Of a stretch of DNA of 64,000 bases, positions 1,082-27,365 are shown piece by piece. The notes below the pieces were generated by a model. That model worked only from the letters and a program-made list of their open reading frames with translations, was not told the DNA's origin and ran no database searches. The stretch covers positions 1,064,501 to 1,128,500 of the forward strand of contig CAVQMW010000005.1 of NCBI GenBank assembly GCA_963713755.1, in the 5' to 3' direction. Position 1 is the first letter of the stretch; each line of letters opens with the position of its first letter. A program made the position numbers and the translations under genes. This DNA comes from an uncultured delta proteobacterium (lineage in GTDB: Bacteria > Desulfobacterota > Desulfobacteria > Desulfobacterales > CAVQMW01).

Positions 1082-1867
1082 TTGGCAACGGATTCTCCAT
1101 CCATCGGGGTGATCGGTTTCGGCCGTTTCGGCCAGTTGACGGTCCGCTATCTGGCATCCGATTTTGAGGTTCGGGTGGCCAGCCGCAGCGCCGGTCCCGA
1201 GGCGGTGGCCCGCTTGGGGGCCCGGAACGCAACCCTGGCCGAGGTGTGCCGTTGCGACATGGTGGTGCCCTGTGTGCCCATTTCCCGGCTGCAGGCGGTT
1301 CTGACCCAGATGAGCCCCCTGCTGGGGCCCGATACCCTGGTGGCCGATGTCTGTTCCGTCAAACACTACCCGGTGCAGTGGATGCAGGCCCTGCTCCCGG
1401 CCGAAACCGCCCTATTGGCCACCCATCCCATGTTCGGCCCGGACAGCGCGGCGCATACTCTCCAGGGTCACAAGATTGTGCTCTGTCCGGTGCGGCTGCC
1501 TGCAGCGCGCTATCAATGCATCACCGCTTACCTGGCGTCTCGGGGTCTTACGGTCTATGAAACCACCCCGGAAGAGCACGACCGCCAAATTGCGGTCAGC
1601 CTGGCCCTGACCCACTTCATCGGGCGCAGTTTGAAGGCCTTTGGGGCCCAGCCCCTGGATATCGACACCGAGGGCTATCAACGCCTGCTGCACATTCTGG
1701 GAGTAGTGGAAAACGATACCTGGCAGCTCTTCGAGGATATGAACCGCTACAATCCCTATGCCGCCCAACAGCGCGAAGGGTTTCGCCAGGCCCTGGCCGA
1801 GATCGAGGCGCGGTTGAAATCCCAATCCGCGGCACCCGACCCCCAATCCGCCACCCAGCCCAAATAA
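1082..1867 (+). CDS. tyrA: prephenate dehydrogenase
   Basis: 261-aa ORF with a TTG start. It has the N-terminal Rossmann motif IGVIGFGRFGQL and the blocks VADVCSVK and HPMFGP typical of prephenate/arogenate dehydrogenases. It lies next to aroC. Confidence 0.85.
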   Translation: MATDSPSIGVIGFGRFGQLTVRYLASDFEVRVASRSAGPEAVARLGARNATLAEVCRCDMVVPCVPISRLQAVLTQMSPLLGPDTLVADVCSVKHYPVQWMQALLPAETALLATHPMFGPDSAAHTLQGHKIVLCPVRLPAARYQCITAYLASRGLTVYETTPEEHDRQIAVSLALTHFIGRSLKAFGAQPLDIDTEGYQRLLHILGVVENDTWQLFEDMNRYNPYAAQQREGFRQALAEIEARLKSQSAAPDPQSATQPK

Positions 1868-2120
1868 CGGCGTTCAACTTGCAACCTGCCACACAGTGGC
1901 ATCCTGGCAATTGACACTTTCTGGCTGAATCTGGTAAGTAGGCTCTTCGCTTAAAGCTTATTCTTCGGATTTCGTACCCATTGGCAGGAACCTAAACCCC
2001 GCAGCCCATTGACACTGACCCCAGGCCCAAGCACGCGATTCCCTGTCGCGTTGAAATATTCCGCGAATTTTGAATTCCCAGTTTAAAATTCATTAACCCA
2101 TCTAACTTCCAGGAGAGAGC

Positions 2121-5100
2121 ATGAGTAACAACACAAGCGGTTCCGTAATGGTGGTCGGCGCCGGCATCGCCGGGATGCAGAGCGCATTGGATCTCGCCGA
2201 ATCGGGTTACTACGTCTATTTGGTGGAAAAGGAGCCGGCCATCGGCGGGCTCATGTCCCAGCTGGACAAAACGTTTCCTACCAACGACTGTGCCATGTGA
2301 GTGATCTCACCCAAACTGGTCGAGGTCGGCCGGCACCTGAACATCGAGCTTCTTACCAATACGGACCTTTTAGCCCTGGAGGGAGATCCGGGAAATTTCA
2401 GCGCCAAGATTCGCAAGAACCCGCGTTATGTCGATCTAGACAAGTGCACCAGCTGTGGGGATTGCGCCAAAGTATGCCCCATTGAACTGCCCGACGAATA
2501 CAACGAGCGCCTCAATACGCGCACGGCCATCTTCAAGCGTTATCAGCAGGCTATACCCGGCGGCTACGGCATCTCCAAACGCAGCGTAGCCCCCTGCCGG
2601 GCCACCTGCCCGGCCCATGTCAGCATCCAGGGCTACATCGCCCTGATCAATACCGGCAAATACGCCGAAGCCCTGAAGCTGTTCCGCGAAGACCACCCCT
2701 TTCCGGCGGTCTGCGGACGGGTCTGCCACCATCCCTGTGAAGAAAATTGCACTCGGGGTGATCTGGACGAGCCCATGGCCATTCGGGAACTGCACCGCTT
2801 CCTGGCCGATTATGAGCGGCAGCAGGGCGAGCCGGTGATTCCTCAAGTGGCCGAGGCCCGGGATGAGAAAGTCGCCATCATCGGCTCCGGTCCCGCCGGC
2901 TTGTCCACGGCCTATTTTCTGGCCCGGGACGGCTACCAAGTAACGGTATTTGAAAAACTGCCCGTGACCGGCGGCATGATGGCCGTGGGGATTCCCGAAT
3001 ACCGGCTGCCCAGGGACATCCTGAACCTGGAGATCAGTCTGATCGAAAAGATGGGCGTGACCATTAAGACCGGGGTCACTTTTGGTGAGGATATTACCCT
3101 GGAGAGCCTCAAGGCCGATGGATTTCAGGCTGTTTTTCTGGGTATCGGCCTGCACGGCGGCCGTCCCTTGGGCGTGGATAACGAAGATGCCGAGGGCGTG
3201 CTGCAGGGGGTGGATTTTCTGCGGGATACGGCCCTGGGTAAGGATGTGCCCATCGGCGAGGAGGTGATCGTCATCGGCGGCGGCAATGTGGCCATCGATG
3301 TGGCCCTCACCGCCAAGCGCAAGGGCGCCAAGGAGGTGACTCTGGTCTGCCTGGAGCGCCGCGAGGAGATGCCCGCTTGGGAACACGAGATCGAAGAGGC
3401 CCTGGAAGGCGACATCCGAATCGTCAACAGTTTCGGTCCCAAATCTTTTTTTATCGACAAGAGCAAGAAAGTTAGCGGTCTGGAGTTCAAGACCTGCACG
3501 GCGGTCTTTGACGACGACGGCCGTTTCAATCCCGCCTACGACGAGGCCCAGTGCGAGGCCATGTTCGGCGATACCGTGATCGTGGCCATCGGACAAAGTA
3601 CTCTTGCCGATTTTGCCGCTAAGGAGGGTATCGAGTTGTCCCCGCCGGGCGGCCTTAAGGCCGATCCGGTCACCCTGCAAACCAACCTGGAGGGGGTCTT
3701 TGCGGGTGGCGATGCCTATTACGGCCCCAAATCGGTGGTGGAAGCCACGGCCTGCGGCAAGGAAGCCGCCGAGAGCATCCGCCGCTATCTCAACGGCCAG
3801 GATCTGGCCGAGGACCGCAAAAAGGTTTACGAGCCCGAGAAACCGGACATCTCCAATGAGGTCAAAAAAGAGCGGGTCACGGTGCGTTGCCTCGATCCTG
3901 AGGCCCGGGAGTGCAACTTCCTGGAAGTCTCCTACGGCTACAACGAGCAAGAGGCCAAGACCGAGGCCGAGCGCTGCCTCAAGTGCGGAATCTGTTCCGA
4001 GTGCTACCAGTGCGTGGACGCCTGTCTGGCCAAAGCTGTGGACCACACCCAGGTGGCCGAAGAGCTGGAACTGCGGGTGGGCTCGGTGATTCTCTCCACC
4101 GGCAGCCAGCCCTACGACCCCACGGCCCTGGCGGAATTTTACCAGTACCGGGCAAATCCCAATGTACTCACCAGCCTGGAGTTCGAGCGTATTCTGAGCG
4201 CCTCGGGGCCCACCATGGGCCACCTGGTGCGACCCACGGATGAAAAGGAGCCCGAAAAAATCGCCTGGCTGCAGTGCGTGGGCTCCCGGGACACCAACAA
4301 ATGCGGCAACGGCTATTGCTCCTCGGTGTGCTGCATGTACGCCATCAAGGACGCCATGATCGCCAAGGAGCATGCCAAGAGTGATCTGGATGCGGCCATC
4401 TTTTACATGGACATCCGCACCTTCGGCAAGGATTACGAGAAATATTACCTGCGCGCCAAGGACAAAGAGGGGGTGCGCTTTGTCAAAGCCCGGGTGCACA
4501 CCATCACCCAGGCGCCGGAGAATGATGACCTGATCGTCAAGTACGCCGATGACGACGGAGTGATCCAGGAAGAGATCTTCAACATGGTGGTGATGTCCGT
4601 GGGACTTCAGGTGCCCCAAAGCGCCGGAGAACTGGCCGAACGGCTGGGCATCGAACTGGATCAGTACCGCTTCACCCAATCGGATATCTTCCATCCCGTG
4701 CAGACCTCCCGGCCGGGGGTTTACGCCTGCGGCGTCTTCCAGGGCCCCAAGGATATTCCCGAGTCGGTGACCCAAGCCAGTGCCGCCGCCGGAGTGGCCG
4801 GCGCGGTGTTGGCCGAGGCCCGCAACACGGACACCCGCAGCGTGGAACTGCCCGCCGAGCGGGATGTGATGAATGAAGATCTGCGGGTGGGGGTTTTTGT
4901 CTGCAACTGCGGGATCAACATCGGCGGCGTCGTGGATGTGCCCGCGGTGCGGGAGTATGCCGCCGGTCTGCCCCACGTGGTGATGGCCGATGAAAACCTC
5001 TTCACCTGCAGCCAGGATGCCCAGGACAAGATGAAAGAGGTGATCCAGGAGAACAACCTCAACCGGGTGGTAGTGGCCTCTTGCAGCCCCAAAACCCACG

Positions 5101-6545
5101 AGGCGATCTTCATGGACACCCTGGTGGGGGTGGGGCTCAACAAGTATCTCTTTGAGATGGCCAACATCCGCAACCAGGACTCCTGGGTCCACGCCAACGA
5201 TCCCGATGCGGCCACCGCAAAAGCCAAAGAGCTGGTGCGCATGGCCGTGGCCCGGGCCACCTCCCTGCGTCCCCTGAGCGAACGCACCATTCCGGTCAAC
5301 CACCGGGCCCTGGTGTTGGGCGGGGGCATTGCCGGGATGAATGCCGCCCTGACCATTGCCGCCCAGGGTTTTCCGGTCACCCTGGTGGAAAAAGAGGCCC
5401 TGCTGGGCGGCATGGCCCGGCGACTGCACCACACCATCGAAGGCGGCGATATCCGCGCTTACATGGATGAGCTCATCGCCAAGGTGAACGCCGAACCCAA
5501 GATCGATGTGCTGACCCACGCCCTGGTGGACGGGTTTTCCGGGTATCAGGGCAATTTCAGCACCGAGTTGCGGGTGGGGCCCGACGGCAAAGCGGAGACC
5601 GTCAAGCACGGCGCCATCGTGGTGACCACCGGGGCCAACGAATACAAGCCCAAGGAGTACCTCTACGGCGAGGACCCGCGGGTTCTGACCCAGGTGGAAC
5701 TTTCCGACCGCCTGGTCTCCCAGGGGGCGAAAGACCTCTCCACGGTGGTGATGATCCAGTGCGTGGGCTCGCGCAACGACGAAAATCCCAACTGTTCCCG
5801 GATCTGCTGCCAGAATGCGGTGAAAAACGCCCTGGCGCTCAAGAAAGAGAACCCCGAGACCCAGGTCTTTGTCCTCTACCGCGACATGCGCACCTACGGC
5901 CTCATGGAGAAGTATTACACCCAGGCCCGGGAGCAGGGGGTCATTTTCGTCCGCTTCGACAAGCAGCAGCCGCCCCGGGTCAGCGCCGCCGCGAGTGGCC
6001 TGCAGATCGAGGTGCAGGACCATGTCCTGAAACGGGACATCCAGATCGAAGCCGACCTGCTGGTGCTCAGCGCCGGGGTGGCGGCCGCGGATACGGCCAG
6101 TGTGGCCAAAATCATGAAACTCAACCGCAATCCCGAAGGCTTTTTCATCGAGGCCCACGTCAAGCTGCGGCCCGTGGACATGCCTTCGGACGGCATCTTC
6201 CTGGGCGGTACGGCCCACGGGCCCAAGCTGATCAGCGAGACCATCTCCCAGGCCCAGGCCGCGGCCTCCCGGGCGGTGACCTTCCTGTGCAAACCGGAGA
6301 TCAAGCTGTCGGCCATCACCGCCAAGCTGGACCCGGACCACTGTGTCAAATGCCTCACCTGTGTGCGCTCATGTCCTTTTGAGGTGCCGGTATTTGATCC
6401 GGAGACCCTGGAGGTGGTCATCGACGACGCCCTGTGCCAGGGCTGCGGGGTCTGCACTGCGGTCTGCCCGCGCCAGACCATCGGTCTGAGCAATTACGAG
6501 GATGATCAGATTTTGTGTAAAATCGATTGTCTGTTGGAGGGATAA
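2121..6545 (+). CDS. hdrA: HdrA-like FAD/FeS flavoprotein fusion (tandem HdrA modules with a GltD-like NAD(P)H module and a C-terminal 2x[4Fe-4S] ferredoxin), with selenocysteine at in-frame TGA 2298-2300
   Basis: ATG 2121 is preceded by AGGAGAGAG at 2111-2119. The 59-codon N-terminus ([21 protein letters not shown]) is in frame with TGA 2298-2300 and with the 1414-codon ORF 2301-6545. The junction reads [21 protein letters not shown], matching the HdrA FPTxDCxxC motif. Further GxGxxG sites are [12 protein letters not shown] and [14 protein letters not shown]. Several CxxCxxCxxxCP clusters are present. Confidence 0.85.
2301..2350 (+). promoter_or_regulatory. candidate SECIS region downstream of UGA
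   Basis: The GC-rich stretch GGUCGAGGUCGGCCGGCACCUGAAC starts about 18 nt after the UGA. It can pair AGGU/ACCU around a CGGCCGGC loop. The fold was not computed and is only inspected by eye. Confidence 0.35.
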
Positions 6546-6596
6546 AACTTAGTAAAAAGAGGCGTATTTAGCGCAGCCTTCAACGCAAACCCAAGT

Positions 6597-6629
6597 AAAA
6601 GGCCCCGACCCATCCATCGGGGCCTTTTT
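6597..6629. terminator. bidirectional rho-independent terminator between convergent genes
   Basis: AAAA, then GGCCCCGA (6601-6608), loop cccatcca, TCGGGGCC (6617-6624), then TTTTT (6625-6629). It sits between the hdrA-like stop (6545) and the SDR stop (6640). Confidence 0.7.
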
Positions 6630-6639
6630 GCGTTCAGGT

Positions 6640-7248
6640 TCAGCAGTTGTCATACATGCGGATGATGGTGCCGGTGGCCTTGCCCTCGACACTTTTGACG
6701 TAGCCGTTGACCACCTTGTGCATGGGGATGGGGTTGTGGCCTGGAAAATAGGCCTCATACTTATCCACGGCATCCGCCACCAACCCCGAGGATACCACAT
6801 TGATCCGAAGGCCGTTTTTCAGTTCGAAAGCGGCCGCCTTGACAAAGCTGTGAATACCGCCGTTGACCATGGCCGGGCTGGTGGTCAGCATCACCGGATC
6901 ATCGGCCAGGATTCCCGTGCTCAAGGTAAACGATCCGCCGGGGTTCACATAATCTTGTCCGATCCGGACCAGATTGACCTGCCCCATCAACTTGCTCTTC
7001 AACCCGATATAAAAATCCTCCTCACTCATGGCATCAAAGGCGGCCCACTTGGCTTCTCCAGCGATGCAGACCACTCCATCGACCTTGCCCACAGTTTCGA
7101 ACATGGCTTGGATGGAAGCGCTGTCGGCGATGTCCACGCGCACATCGCCGGAATTTCTGCCGCCGATGACGAGCTCATGCTTCTGGGCTAAATGGGCGCT
7201 GACCTTCTTTCCGATGGTACCGCTGCCGCCGATGATTATAATTTTCAT
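6640..7248 (-). CDS. short-chain dehydrogenase/reductase (about 200-aa SDR)
   Basis: N-terminal MKIIIIGGSGTIGKKV Rossmann motif, and an SDR-like core including INVVSSGLV. Confidence 0.75.
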   Translation of the reverse strand: MKIIIIGGSGTIGKKVSAHLAQKHELVIGGRNSGDVRVDIADSASIQAMFETVGKVDGVVCIAGEAKWAAFDAMSEEDFYIGLKSKLMGQVNLVRIGQDYVNPGGSFTLSTGILADDPVMLTTSPAMVNGGIHSFVKAAAFELKNGLRINVVSSGLVADAVDKYEAYFPGHNPIPMHKVVNGYVKSVEGKATGTIIRMYDNC

Positions 7249-8759: not shown

Positions 8760-10307
8760 CTATTGAAACAGATTTCCCAAGGCGCTCTCCGGGGGGATAG
8801 AATTCAGCAGGCAGCCATAGAGCAGCAGCCCGGCGCAGAGCAGCTGCAGCCCCCGGAGACGGCGGCGGCTAAAGCGCCAGGGCGGCAGGAAAAAAGCGCT
8901 GCAGCAGCCCCCCAGGGTGAAAAAAGGGGTGAACAGATAGGCATTGCCGGGCTGCCAGGCGGGGATCAAGGTAATCAGATAGAGGTAGGCCAGCAGGGCC
9001 ACACACACGGCTTTCAGCCGTCGAGGACCCTTCACCAGGGCGTAGCCGATCGCGGGCAGGATGAACAGGACGCTCAAGGGACCGAACCAGGCGGCCGGCA
9101 GGGAGGCCGACCAATTGATTTCAAATTTGCTTTTCGCGCCTTTCATGCCGAGGGGGCCGGCTAAAATGCGCCCATGGAGCTGTTCCAGCACTGCTCGCGG
9201 GGACTCGCCGCCCAAGGCCAACCCAAGCTGTTCCACCGGCCGGGTGAAGTCCAGAGACTCCAAGCCATAGCGTCCCAGGTTGGCCAGGCTGCCCACCAGG
9301 CCGTCGGCATTGCGTTGCGCGCTCACCCAAGGCACGGCGTATCGGGCGGCGGGAAGCTGGGAAAACAGAATCATCACGGCCACGGCCACCGCCAGAAGAT
9401 AGGGCTGGGCTTTGAGGGCCGGCCAGAGGGTCCGGTAGTCGTGGCGGCGCAGGATTAGAACCAGGCAGAGGCCGCCCAGAACCACCGGCAGGGCCGGGGC
9501 CACTCCAGGGCCTCCCAGGCTGAAGGTTGTGGCGGAGGTCAGCACCACCACGTCCAGGGGGCTGGGGCGCTCCACTACGCGGTACAGCGCCAGCAGACTG
9601 ACAGCGGCGGCGGCGGCCTGGATCACTTCGGGGCGGCCCGAAGGCGCCAGGGCCACCAGGCGGGGCATGCTCATCACCACCAGGGTGACGGTAATGGCCG
9701 TGGGGGGCCAGGCATAGCGCCGCGCCAGGGCATAGGTAGCCAGGCCGGTTGCCAGATAGGCCCAGAAGCTGTGCAACCCGGCCCCCGCCGGCGTATCTAG
9801 GCGCAGATTCAGGAAAGTGAGCCACTGGGCATTGTCGGGACGCAACCCGGCCGCCGCCAGGGAATCCAGAGAGCGGCCCTGAATCAGATTATCCAGGAGT
9901 TGCGTCGAAAGCGCGGGCTCAGGGAGGACTTGGGCACCGAGGATGGCCTGGCCCCCCAGCCAGAGGCCGGCTGCCCCCAGACTCAAGGTTGCCAGGGGGT
10001 GGGTTCGGCCGAAGCCGAGCAGTTCCTGTCCCAATCGGCGTAAACGGAAGTCCTGGTGCCGGAGCATGGCCCCGGCGCCCAGTACCATGACAATCTCCAG
10101 CCCCCAAATCCAGCCCGGCACTCGGGCCATCAGCGCCAATTGGGACAGCCCCGAAAGCAGCATCAAGGGGATGAACAACCCATAGGCCGCGGCCTCGGCC
10201 AGGGTTTGGCCCCGTTGTCGAAAATGGGCATAGAGGGCCAGGGCCGGCACCCCGATCTCCACCAATCTCCATAACCCGGCGCCTATGTCAGATACCATCC
10301 ACTCCAT
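8760..10307 (-). CDS. polytopic integral membrane protein, function unknown
   Basis: 515-aa ORF dominated by hydrophobic helices with many predicted TM segments. No diagnostic motif was recognised. Confidence 0.65.
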   Translation of the reverse strand: MEWMVSDIGAGLWRLVEIGVPALALYAHFRQRGQTLAEAAAYGLFIPLMLLSGLSQLALMARVPGWIWGLEIVMVLGAGAMLRHQDFRLRRLGQELLGFGRTHPLATLSLGAAGLWLGGQAILGAQVLPEPALSTQLLDNLIQGRSLDSLAAAGLRPDNAQWLTFLNLRLDTPAGAGLHSFWAYLATGLATYALARRYAWPPTAITVTLVVMSMPRLVALAPSGRPEVIQAAAAAVSLLALYRVVERPSPLDVVVLTSATTFSLGGPGVAPALPVVLGGLCLVLILRRHDYRTLWPALKAQPYLLAVAVAVMILFSQLPAARYAVPWVSAQRNADGLVGSLANLGRYGLESLDFTRPVEQLGLALGGESPRAVLEQLHGRILAGPLGMKGAKSKFEINWSASLPAAWFGPLSVLFILPAIGYALVKGPRRLKAVCVALLAYLYLITLIPAWQPGNAYLFTPFFTLGGCCSAFFLPPWRFSRRRLRGLQLLCAGLLLYGCLLNSIPPESALGNLFQ

Positions 10308-10315
10308 TCATCGCT

Positions 10316-25504: not shown

Positions 25505-27365
25505 TTAGTTGAAAAAACGGTTGTTCCAGATCGCAATGTTGATCAGCCCCCACAGTACGTGGTTGTGGTTCTGGACTCTGCGGCTATGCTCGTCCATGAG
25601 CTGATTGACATAGGCGCGCTCCATGTTCTCGGCGATGATGGGCGAATCGTTGAGCAGCTCCACCATGTAGGGTTTCAGGCGTCCCCGCAGCAGGTGCTTC
25701 ACCGGCAGGCTGTAGCCCTGTTTGCCGCGCTGGACGATGTTTTGCGGCAGGATGCCTTCCAGGGCCGAGCGGAAGACATGTTTGGTTTCGAGCCCTTTGA
25801 GCTTCCAGTCGCCGGGCAGGGCCGCCATGTACTCCACCAGGGGGTGGTCCAGCAGCGGTACCCGGATTTCCAGGGAGCTGGCCATGCTCATCTTGTCGAC
25901 CTTCATCAGCACGCTGTCGGTCATCATGAAGCGCATGTCGAGGTAGATTTCGCGGTTGATGAGATCCTCGGCATCGCAGCGGGCGTTGTATTGACGCACC
26001 TGGCGAAAGGGGTCCAGCCGGGTGGCGGCCTTGAACTCAGGGTTGAACAAGCGCTGGGCCATGGCTGGCGTGGAGAAATACTGCCAGCGCAGATGACCCC
26101 CTTCCGCCGGCAGATCGGCGCCCTCGACGAAGCGCTTGAGCATGTTGACCGGCCCCTTTTTCTGGGGCTGATCCGGCAGCCGGCGTACCAGTCTGGAGAC
26201 CACCTCGCTGCGTAGCACCCGGGGCAGGGCGCGATAGTAGCGCCACAGTTTGCTGGCCTTGAAGCGGTCATAGCCGGCAAAGCTCTCGTCGCCCCTTCGC
26301 CGCTGAGGCAGACGGTGACATGCTCGCGGCCTTTTGGCAGACCAGGAAGAGCGGCACCGTGGAGAGGTCGGTCATGGGTTCGTCCAGGTGCCAGAGGGCC
26401 TTCTCCACATACTGCGGCCTGATATCGTCGATCATCAGTACATGGTGCTCGGTCTCGAAATGGTCGGCCACGATCTGGGCGTATTCCAGCTCGCTGAAGG
26501 TCTTGTCTTCGTAGCCGATGGTGAAGGTTCGCAGAGGGCCGCTGATGTGGCGGCGCATCATGGCCACGATGGTGCTGGAGTCGAGACCGCCGGAGAGAAA
26601 CACGCCCAGCGGTACATCACTCACCAGATGGCTTTTCACCGCCTCGTCCAAAAGGACGCGTTGCCGCTCCACGGCAGCTTCATAGCTGGGCAGCTGGCGG
26701 CCGTTGAATTTAAGATCCCAGTAGGGTTTCAGCTCGGCCCGACCCCCCTGCCAGCGAACCCAGTGCCCGGCCGGTATTTTGTAGATATCCTGAAACATGG
26801 TGTCGGGCGCCGGCACGAACTCAAAGCCGAGGTAGTCATACAGCGCTTGTCGGTTAAGACGCCGGGCGACGCCGTCGTATTCCAGAATGGCCTTGATTTC
26901 AGAGGCAAACACCAGTCGCTCGCCCCGCTGGTAGTAGTAGAGAGGTTTGATGCCGATGCGGTCGCGCACCAGAAAGAGCTCCTGGCTGCGGGTGTCCCAG
27001 ATGGCGAAGGCGAACATCCCCCGCAGGCGCTGAACCACCTCGATGCCGAACTCTTCATATCCGTGGAGGATCACTTCCGAATCGCTGTTGCTGGTAAAGC
27101 GGTGTCCTTTGGCCTCCAGCAGGGGCCGCAGCTCCATGAAATTGTAGATTTCGCCGTTGAACACCAGGGCCAGGCTGCGATCCTCGTTGAACATGGGTTG
27201 GCGGCCGTTTTCGCTCAGATCGATGATGCTCAGCCGGCGATGGCCGAGAGAGACCCCGCTGTCGCTGTAACTCCCCTGCTGGTCGGGTCCGCGGTGGGCC
27301 AACACCCCGGTCATCCGCTGCACCAGCGGTTCATCCTGCCAGGTAAAGCCGCAAATTCCGCACAT
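25505..27365 (-). pseudogene. asnB: asparagine synthase (glutamine-hydrolysing), interrupted by two 1-nt frame shifts around 26285-26325
   Basis: The N-terminal ORF 26268-27365 starts MCGICGF and carries SGGLDSS. The C-terminal ORF 25505-26218 is in another frame. Between them a third frame reads EHVTVCLSGEG, then DESFAGYDRFKASKLWRYY follows in the C-terminal frame. Together these restore the canonical SGEGxDExFxGY block. Confidence 0.85.

Follow-up and report, generated by a model that had tools for sequence, protein, structure and literature searches.

A protein-coding gene of the hdrL type, in a 64,000-nt stretch of DNA (the window) from an uncultured delta proteobacterium (contig CAVQMW010000005.1), carries an in-frame TGA that is very probably a real selenocysteine (Sec) codon with its own recoding hairpin. 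The best explanation, to which we assign a probability of about 0.93, is that positions 2121-6545 constitute one gene for a 1474-residue cytoplasmic HdrL-type iron-sulfur flavoprotein, the UGA at codon 60 being decoded as Sec. The support for this comes mainly from comparisons of the window with orthologous genes carrying either TGA or a cysteine codon at the same position, and from a short block of nucleotides just after the TGA that is held nearly invariant in the TGA-bearing genes. The features discussed are collected in Table 1.

An In-Frame TGA in the Column of a Conserved Cysteine

ATG 2121 opens 59 sense codons (2121-2297), which are followed by TGA 2298-2300 and immediately by GTG 2301, from which another 1414 codons stay in frame before the TAA at 6543-6545. 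The AGGAG core of a Shine-Dalgarno (SD) motif lies at 2111-2115, with a 5-nt spacer to the ATG. Read in frame, the junction runs from the upstream peptide through the UGA into VISPKLVEV. A previous interpretation of this DNA (the sequence-only reading) had described the leader, its ribosome-binding site and the large open reading frame (ORF), and the positions and peptides that it quoted are all present in the sequence. TGA is the most frequent ordinary stop codon in the window, ending 19 of the 39 ORFs of at least 200 amino acids (aa), so the genetic code is standard and not globally reassigned.

Orthologous DNA was compared at 80 loci from GTDB species genomes, including Desulfobacterales metagenome-assembled genomes (MAGs), Desulfosarcina, Desulfatitalea and others. 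The codon-60 column is TGA in 39 of these loci, as in the window, and TGC or TGT in the other 41. All 80 keep about 59 upstream codons in frame, and in all 80 the tblastn matches cross the position of the TGA, beginning at query residues 1-22. A scan of metagenomes for the pattern FPTxDCxxU followed by xIxPK found TGA-bearing HdrA-like genes in a further 120 stretches, with 124 matches and 42 distinct sequences at +16 to +36. The expectation that Cys-containing HdrA homologues would align with the TGA column is therefore borne out, both by the 41 loci with TGC or TGT and by a full-length Cys-type protein cluster described below.

Solved structures lead to the same column. Methanogen HdrA chains (8rvu, 5odc, 7bkb and others) match the joined protein with E-values of 1e-154 to 1e-125, and the alignment of HdrA residues 153-292 with query residues 8-147 passes over the UGA with no gap; query residues 624-896 are aligned as well. 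The UGA column corresponds to the second Cys of DKTFPTLDCSMC in the solved chains; the wider motif context at the junction is DKTFPTLDCSMCILAPKMV, again with the UGA on its second Cys. These alignments and the Cys orthologues support the earlier proposal that the TGA stands on the second Cys of the FPTxDCxxC motif near the flavin.

TGA is one base away from TGC and TGT, and at least one other gene of the window (asnB-like) is broken by a frame change. Both observations would suit a pseudogene, or a sequencing or assembly error, in which a Cys codon (TGY) had been mutated or misread to TGA. However, 39 independent genomes and about 120 metagenome stretches share this TGA, always between intact frames and together with a dedicated conserved hairpin for which the Cys genes have no counterpart. 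A damaged or misread Cys codon is thus scarcely credible here.

Annotated Homologues That Begin One Codon Past the TGA

Protein collections portray this family differently, and a look-up of the exact 1414-aa product in the contig index found no record of it. In a search space of 5.8 billion proteins, 119 of the best 120 clusters considered are 1360-1421 aa long with at most 96% query coverage, and the three short homologues that were inspected begin MISPKLVE, exactly one codon past the TGA. The only full-length cluster among the best 120, P0084 (1477 aa, 67% identity, 100% coverage), is the Cys form. Such lengths and starts, like the ORF list of the window, which begins the large ORF at GTG 2301, would be expected of two genes, that is, a 59-aa peptide ending at TGA 2300 and a 1414-aa protein made from GTG 2301 by termination-reinitiation.

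This arrangement is at odds with the nucleotide data. In the 40 Sec genes, the codon after the TGA is GTG in 12, GTC in 22, GTA in 3, GTT in 2 and ATC in 1, so that 28 of the 40 have a non-start codon there, and no SD motif was found within the 20 nt before the TGA in any of the 40. The 59 residues themselves are the FAD-binding (flavin adenine dinucleotide-binding) beta-alpha-beta start of the HdrA fold, contiguous with the remainder of the protein in both Cys orthologues and solved HdrA. Two genes would moreover give no role to the Sec-specific synonymous constraint at 2313-2333 (see next section). Separate translation of the two parts is therefore most improbable, and short homologues beginning at the 2301 position are truncations of the kind that gene callers routinely make in this sort of selenoprotein gene. 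The sequence-only reading had named homologues starting at 2301, with a separate 59-aa gene upstream, as the case that would speak against it, and the distribution of codons after the TGA and the lack of SD motifs argue that this case does not hold. Its view that the leader makes no sense as a stand-alone peptide is upheld by the GxGxxG FAD/Rossmann start within the 59 residues and their continuity with the rest in the Cys orthologues. A single product of about 1474 aa likewise agrees with the contiguous Cys orthologue P0084 and with the gap-free alignment of solved HdrA chains over the junction.

A Nearly Invariant Hairpin Specific to Sec Genes

The frame after the TGA contains a block, AAACUGGUCGAGGUCGGCCGG, encoding K65-R71, in which synonymous variation has almost disappeared. 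Among 39 unique Sec genes, six codons in a row within the block have a third-position entropy of 0 and the seventh comes close to it, compared with 0.5-1.8 bits at the same third positions in Cys genes and 1.4-1.9 bits at the positions flanking the block in Sec genes. Codon entropy over the seven-codon window KLVEVGR is 0.043 bits in Sec genes, against a gene mean of 1.22, and this window ranks first of 198 (about 630 aligned codons scanned), with all eight of the windows lowest in entropy overlapping it. In 40 Cys genes KLVEVGR has 1.31 bits and ranks 270 of 304. The Val (GUC) of VEVGR is itself specific to Sec genes, and Cys genes have Ala or Cys there.

Within this block lies a hairpin of 7 bp with a loop of 4 nt, separated from the UGA (2300) by 22 nt up to the loop (2323). 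If the U of UGA is numbered 1, the stem extends from C19-G36 to G25-C30 and is closed by the tetraloop A26-G-G-U29. Its energy is -10.2 kcal/mol in the window, and the means are -9.98 in the 40 Sec genes vs. -0.05 in the 41 Cys genes. Published criteria for a bacterial Sec insertion sequence (SECIS) specify a stem of 4-16 bp, a loop of 3-9 nt with a G in its first two positions, a spacing of 16-37 nt from the UGA and a minimum free energy (MFE) of at most -7.5, and the hairpin at 2316-2333 lies within all four (PMC13188914).

In an alignment of 42 distinct sequences, 97.6% of the cells of this hairpin are paired, and registers slid along the sequence are all far worse. Informative stem changes in relatives include C19-G36 to U-A (two sequences), U23-G32 to G-C and U20-G35 to U-A. 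Changes on both sides affect two of the seven pairs, amounting to three cells; such cells occurred in none of 500 shuffles, and two pairs with compensatory changes were matched by 0-2 of 500 shuffles. When genome and metagenome loci are pooled, 109 of 164 sequences have the same element as the window. The class of this element varies hardly at all over 95 unique sequences, which come from several paralogue families with VISPK, IISPK, ILSPK, and ILAPK contexts.

Other Sec-HdrA-like genes use other hairpins at the same place. At least four SECIS hairpin classes were found at +16 to +45 after the UGA in the metagenome genes (L081-L200). One class, GGAUGYC-GGUC-GRCAUCC, is built around a GGUC tetraloop, and its pairs show clear compensatory swaps (U-A/C-G and U-A/G-C); further classes consist of a stem with a GUG triloop and of CCAAGCUC-GUN-GAGCUUGG. 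In all of these other classes the apical loop contains G-U and begins 22-30 nt past the UGA. Bacterial SECIS elements are diverse in structure with a common loop signature, and the metagenome classes fit this description.

The window hairpin resembles the consensus of the bSECISearch and Escherichia coli fdhF type in being an in-ORF stem-loop just 3' of the UGA with a small G-G-U apical loop. It differs from the fdhF element in its unrelated sequence and in the unusual invariance of the 18-21-nt block across many HdrA and HdrL paralogues. The window stem likewise lacks the bulged U of the fdhF element. By these comparisons the hairpin at 2316-2333 is a SECIS, Sec-specific and nearly invariant, to which binding of SelB is predicted.

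Decoding of the UGA Codon

We infer the mechanism of decoding from the established bacterial pathway. SelB carrying Sec-tRNA(Sec) would be bound by the hairpin at 2316-2333 while the ribosome is on the UGA, the apical loop tethering SelB·GTP·Sec-tRNA(Sec) 22 nt past the UGA in the A site, and this complex would outcompete release factor 2.

Several observations weigh against Sec insertion at this codon. Covariation gives the hairpin thin support, since an element so close to invariant offers three variants in 42 sequences. At -13.1 kcal/mol, the MFE fold of 2298-2360 does not improve on shuffles (z = 0.29), and in a 123-nt context the pairing probability of the SECIS stem is about 0.6, while that of a competing hairpin is about 0.3. 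No selA, selB or selD was found within the 64-kb window (NCBIfam and Pfam searches of about 50 ORFs), nor was a tRNA-Sec, or any tRNA gene at all, in a tRNA scan of the same 64 kb. Sec decoding by this organism is assumed.

The MFE hairpin itself (2303-2327, loop CAAACU) was considered as a SECIS candidate and rejected: 82% of its cells are paired, it has no compensatory change, it performs no better than shuffles, and it uses positions that vary freely in relatives. The sequence-only reading had anticipated a SECIS-like hairpin and suggested folding 2298-2360 to find it. Such a hairpin is indeed present, at 2316-2333, when relatives are compared; the suggested fold returns the wrong one.

With the Sec machinery not found within the window, the UGA could instead be read through by a near-cognate or suppressor tRNA as Cys or Trp, the machinery having been lost and the hairpin being a mere stimulator. 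Low-level insertion of Cys or Trp at Sec-UGA codons occurs in other bacteria under selenium limitation, which counts in favor of this alternative. Against it, the hairpin, whose G-G-U loop lies 22 nt past the UGA, fits the SECIS consensus of the SelB type, and the neighboring gene mvhD switches to UGA together with hdrL in related genomes (see below), indicating an active Sec trait in the clade. Loss of the machinery should also bring reversion from TGA to TGY, as in the Cys clades. Read-through of this kind is very unlikely, and decoding of the UGA as Sec remains the preferred explanation.

Other parts of the window were scanned for related elements. No Rfam family matched anywhere in the window, and a scan for ORF pairs joined by a single stop yielded no second selenoprotein gene in the window. 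The only look-alike, a TGA (10308-10310) directly before the ATG of a 515-aa minus-strand ORF (8760-10310), was rejected as a Sec codon and attributed to coincidence; the ORF is hydrophobic with no family match, and its 111 upstream codons are Arg-rich, likewise with no family match.

Architecture and Proposed Function of the Product

Domain searches of the joined protein were run with Cys put at residue 60. The FAD/Rossmann start is at residue 9 and a [4Fe-4S] motif lies at approximately 103-121, after which the HdrA FAD domain is interrupted by an NfnB/GltD-like insert and resumes at approximately 620-900. The insert matches Fer4_20 (157-236) and Pyr_redox_2 (250-544) in Pfam and PRK12771 (151-653) in NCBIfam, the last above its cutoff, and PDB chains of NfnA/NfnB-like proteins and of GltD match as well. 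The second HdrA-like module consists of an HdrA N-terminal domain (HdrA 7-137 aligned to query 916-1046), a second FAD domain (FAD_oxidored from 1064) and a C-terminal 2x[4Fe-4S] ferredoxin domain (Fer4 1401-1454), with NCBIfam HdrA matching 1161-1473. This module keeps a GxGxxG FAD start and is without FPTxDCxxC/U, the Cys-Sec pair being found in the first module only. NCBIfam HdrA2 and HdrA match the protein strongly, yet as it is a fusion these matches stay under the full-length cutoffs. This order of domains, in which an NfnB/GltD-like insert splits the HdrA FAD domain and a second HdrA-like module follows, makes the product an HdrL-type fusion.

In the product, a Cys57-x-x-Sec60 pair would lie beside the flavin bound by the first HdrA module. 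Among CxxU selenoproteins, HdrA is a standard family (PMC13188914), abundant in deltaproteobacterial selenoproteomes (PMC1976440). In Methanococcus maripaludis HdrA, Sec197 is located next to the FAD, forms a selenylsulfide with a neighboring Cys, and is proposed to relay electrons between the FAD and an Fe-S cluster (PMC13518236). The sequence-only reading took Sec/Cys alternation at this site of HdrA as established, and the TGA column is indeed the published CxxU position (PMC13188914), equivalent to Sec197 of M. maripaludis (PMC13518236). By analogy with HdrA, the CxxU pair of the window protein may have a comparable redox chemistry. For HdrL proteins, NAD(P)H-linked electron confurcation or bifurcation to DsrC or ferredoxin has been proposed and is undemonstrated (PMC2702500, PMC5947623).

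Methanogen HdrA and the window protein share the FAD-domain fold, the FPTxDCxxC/U motif, the Sec column and the Cys-Sec pair by the bifurcating flavin. An NfnB-like insert and a second HdrA-like module set the window protein apart from methanogen HdrA, and the window gene lacks hdrBC or mvh/vhu neighbors. The location of the SECIS also differs, being in the 3'-UTR (untranslated region) in archaeal HdrA and inside the coding sequence right after the UGA in the window gene, which is the bacterial mode. Residues of approximately 151-653 are like the NfnB/GltD subunits (PDB 4ylf_B, 5jca_L, and 9n5u_A), with PRK12771 matched end to end; while NfnB/GltD is a separate subunit, the module here is an insertion within the HdrA domain and has no NfnA-like partner nearby.

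HdrL1 and HdrL3 of Desulfobacterium autotrophicum HRM2 were listed as selenoproteins in 2009 (PMC2702500). Like the window protein, they are large, soluble proteins of Desulfobacterales, described as Sec-containing, in which HdrA is joined to a GltD/NfnB-like domain that binds NAD(P)H; this fusion of heterodisulfide reductase with a glutamate-synthase-like part is what the name HdrL denotes in HRM2. The likeness is one of architecture and does not single out one HdrL paralogue as the orthologue of the window gene. In D. autotrophicum a Sec HdrL coexists with Cys paralogues in one genome (PMC2702500), as it does in some MAGs here, and replacement by a Cys paralogue under selenium limitation was suggested as possible for that species (PMC2702500). 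Single MAGs with both a Sec- and a Cys-type hdrL are CAYZJH01 (L016 and L033), JAIPES01 (L059 and L049) and CAWGGS01 (L022 and L079).

Coupling to mvhD and Switching Between Sec and Cys

Most orthologous loci (L004-L034 and others) have mvhD approximately 40-50 nt past the hdrL stop (e.g., L004, L005, L009, L012, L017, and L023). Where hdrL has the UGA, the adjacent mvhD also has an in-frame UGA (AFCCNY-U-GYSAADLAGSMRL), and where hdrL has Cys, the adjacent mvhD has Cys (CCKYCAYAAADLAGSMRL; compare L041, L049, and L072). The states of the two genes match, and Sec/Cys status is thus coupled between neighbors.

The window departs from this arrangement. No mvhD was found by tblastn downstream of hdrL or elsewhere in the 64 kb, and the gene is also absent after hdrL in the three closest relatives (L001-L003). 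Each hdrL of D. autotrophicum has an mvhD after it (PMC2702500), while in the window a terminator-like hairpin and a convergent gene come next. The lineage of the window, with a Sec-HdrL and no MvhD beside it, may have an HdrL that is NAD(P)H-linked and self-contained, either dispensing with the usual electron-input subunit or relying on one encoded elsewhere.

A small second Sec clade (L011, L016, L022, and L030) is nested among Cys-type genes in a neighbor-joining tree, implying at least two switches between Sec and Cys. In its N-terminal 70 aa this clade has 89-90% identity to the main Sec clade vs. 74-78% to Cys genes; over the other 535 aa it is nearer to the Cys genes (75-80%) than to the main Sec clade (69-75%). 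The pattern could reflect recombination of a cassette of Sec codon and SECIS, or convergent co-adaptation. That the Sec codon, the 18-21-nt SECIS and approximately 70 N-terminal residues form a transferable cassette able to convert a Cys-type hdrL or hdrA is a speculative and rather doubtful extension of the first of these.

Genomic Context

Upstream of hdrL are aroC and a prephenate dehydrogenase gene, and downstream a 13-bp hairpin (6597-6628) lies between the hdrL stop and an SDR gene that runs toward it on the minus strand (6640-7248). No sigma-70-like promoter emerged from a consensus scan of 1800-6800, and by tblastn the neighbors in the window (aroC, tyrA, SDR, and HDOD) show no conserved synteny in the 80 loci.

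The asnB-like gene mentioned above is split on the minus strand (25505-27365) into two ORFs in different frames, of which 26268-27365 covers GATase and Asn_synthase positions 3-115 and 25505-26218 covers Asn_synthase positions 144-352. This asparagine-synthase-like gene is a frameshift pseudogene or the result of an assembly error. A plus-strand ORF at 43375-44292 matches the REP-associated tyrosine transposase family (NF047646) above cutoff and sits amid glycosyltransferase-like genes and genes of unknown function.

Table 1. Positions in the window of the hdrL-type gene, its predicted recoding signal and neighboring elements.
Feature	Position	Strand	Basis
Shine-Dalgarno region AGGAGAGAG (core AGGAG 2111-2115)	2111..2119	+	Read from sequence
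Complete hdrL-type coding sequence, 1474 codons including predicted Sec60, plus stop TAA 6543-6545	2121..6545	+	Translation; Pfam/NCBIfam domains; tblastn
Cys57 codon TGT, first residue of the C-x-x-U redox motif	2289..2291	+	Aligns with first Cys of LDCSMC in solved HdrA
UGA predicted to be read as selenocysteine, residue 60	2298..2300	+	TGA/Cys column; HdrA FPTxDCxxC alignment
Sec-specific invariant block AAACUGGUCGAGGUCGGCCGG, codons K65-R71	2313..2333	+	Third-position and codon entropy
Predicted SECIS hairpin: stem 2316-2322 (CUGGUCG) / 2327-2333 (CGGCCGG), loop AGGU 2323-2326	2316..2333	+	Energy; covariation
NfnB/GltD-like NAD(P)H-FAD-[4Fe-4S] insert, ~aa 151-653, within first HdrA module	2571..4079	+	Pfam, NCBIfam and PDB matches
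Second HdrA-like module, ~aa 916-1474	4866..6542	+	PDB HdrA alignment; Pfam; NCBIfam
G+C-rich 13-bp hairpin, likely bidirectional terminator	6597..6628	.	Terminator scan and sequence

Implications for Annotation and for the HdrL Family

Sec in HdrA and HdrL has been known since the 2000s, and the present finding is a routine correction of annotation that raises no new biological question. Mildly new are the co-switching of hdrL and mvhD, the absence of mvhD in the subclade of the window, and the signs of N-terminus transfer between hdrL lineages. The main value lies in annotation, where the gene should appear as a single selenoprotein of 1474 aa. In public collections this family is represented almost solely by N-terminally truncated products without the FAD-binding start, and such entries distort homology models and domain assignments. 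The comparison set of 40 Sec and 41 Cys orthologues delimits the compact 7-bp, AGGU-loop SECIS of this family, and the source organism can be marked as a probable Sec user.

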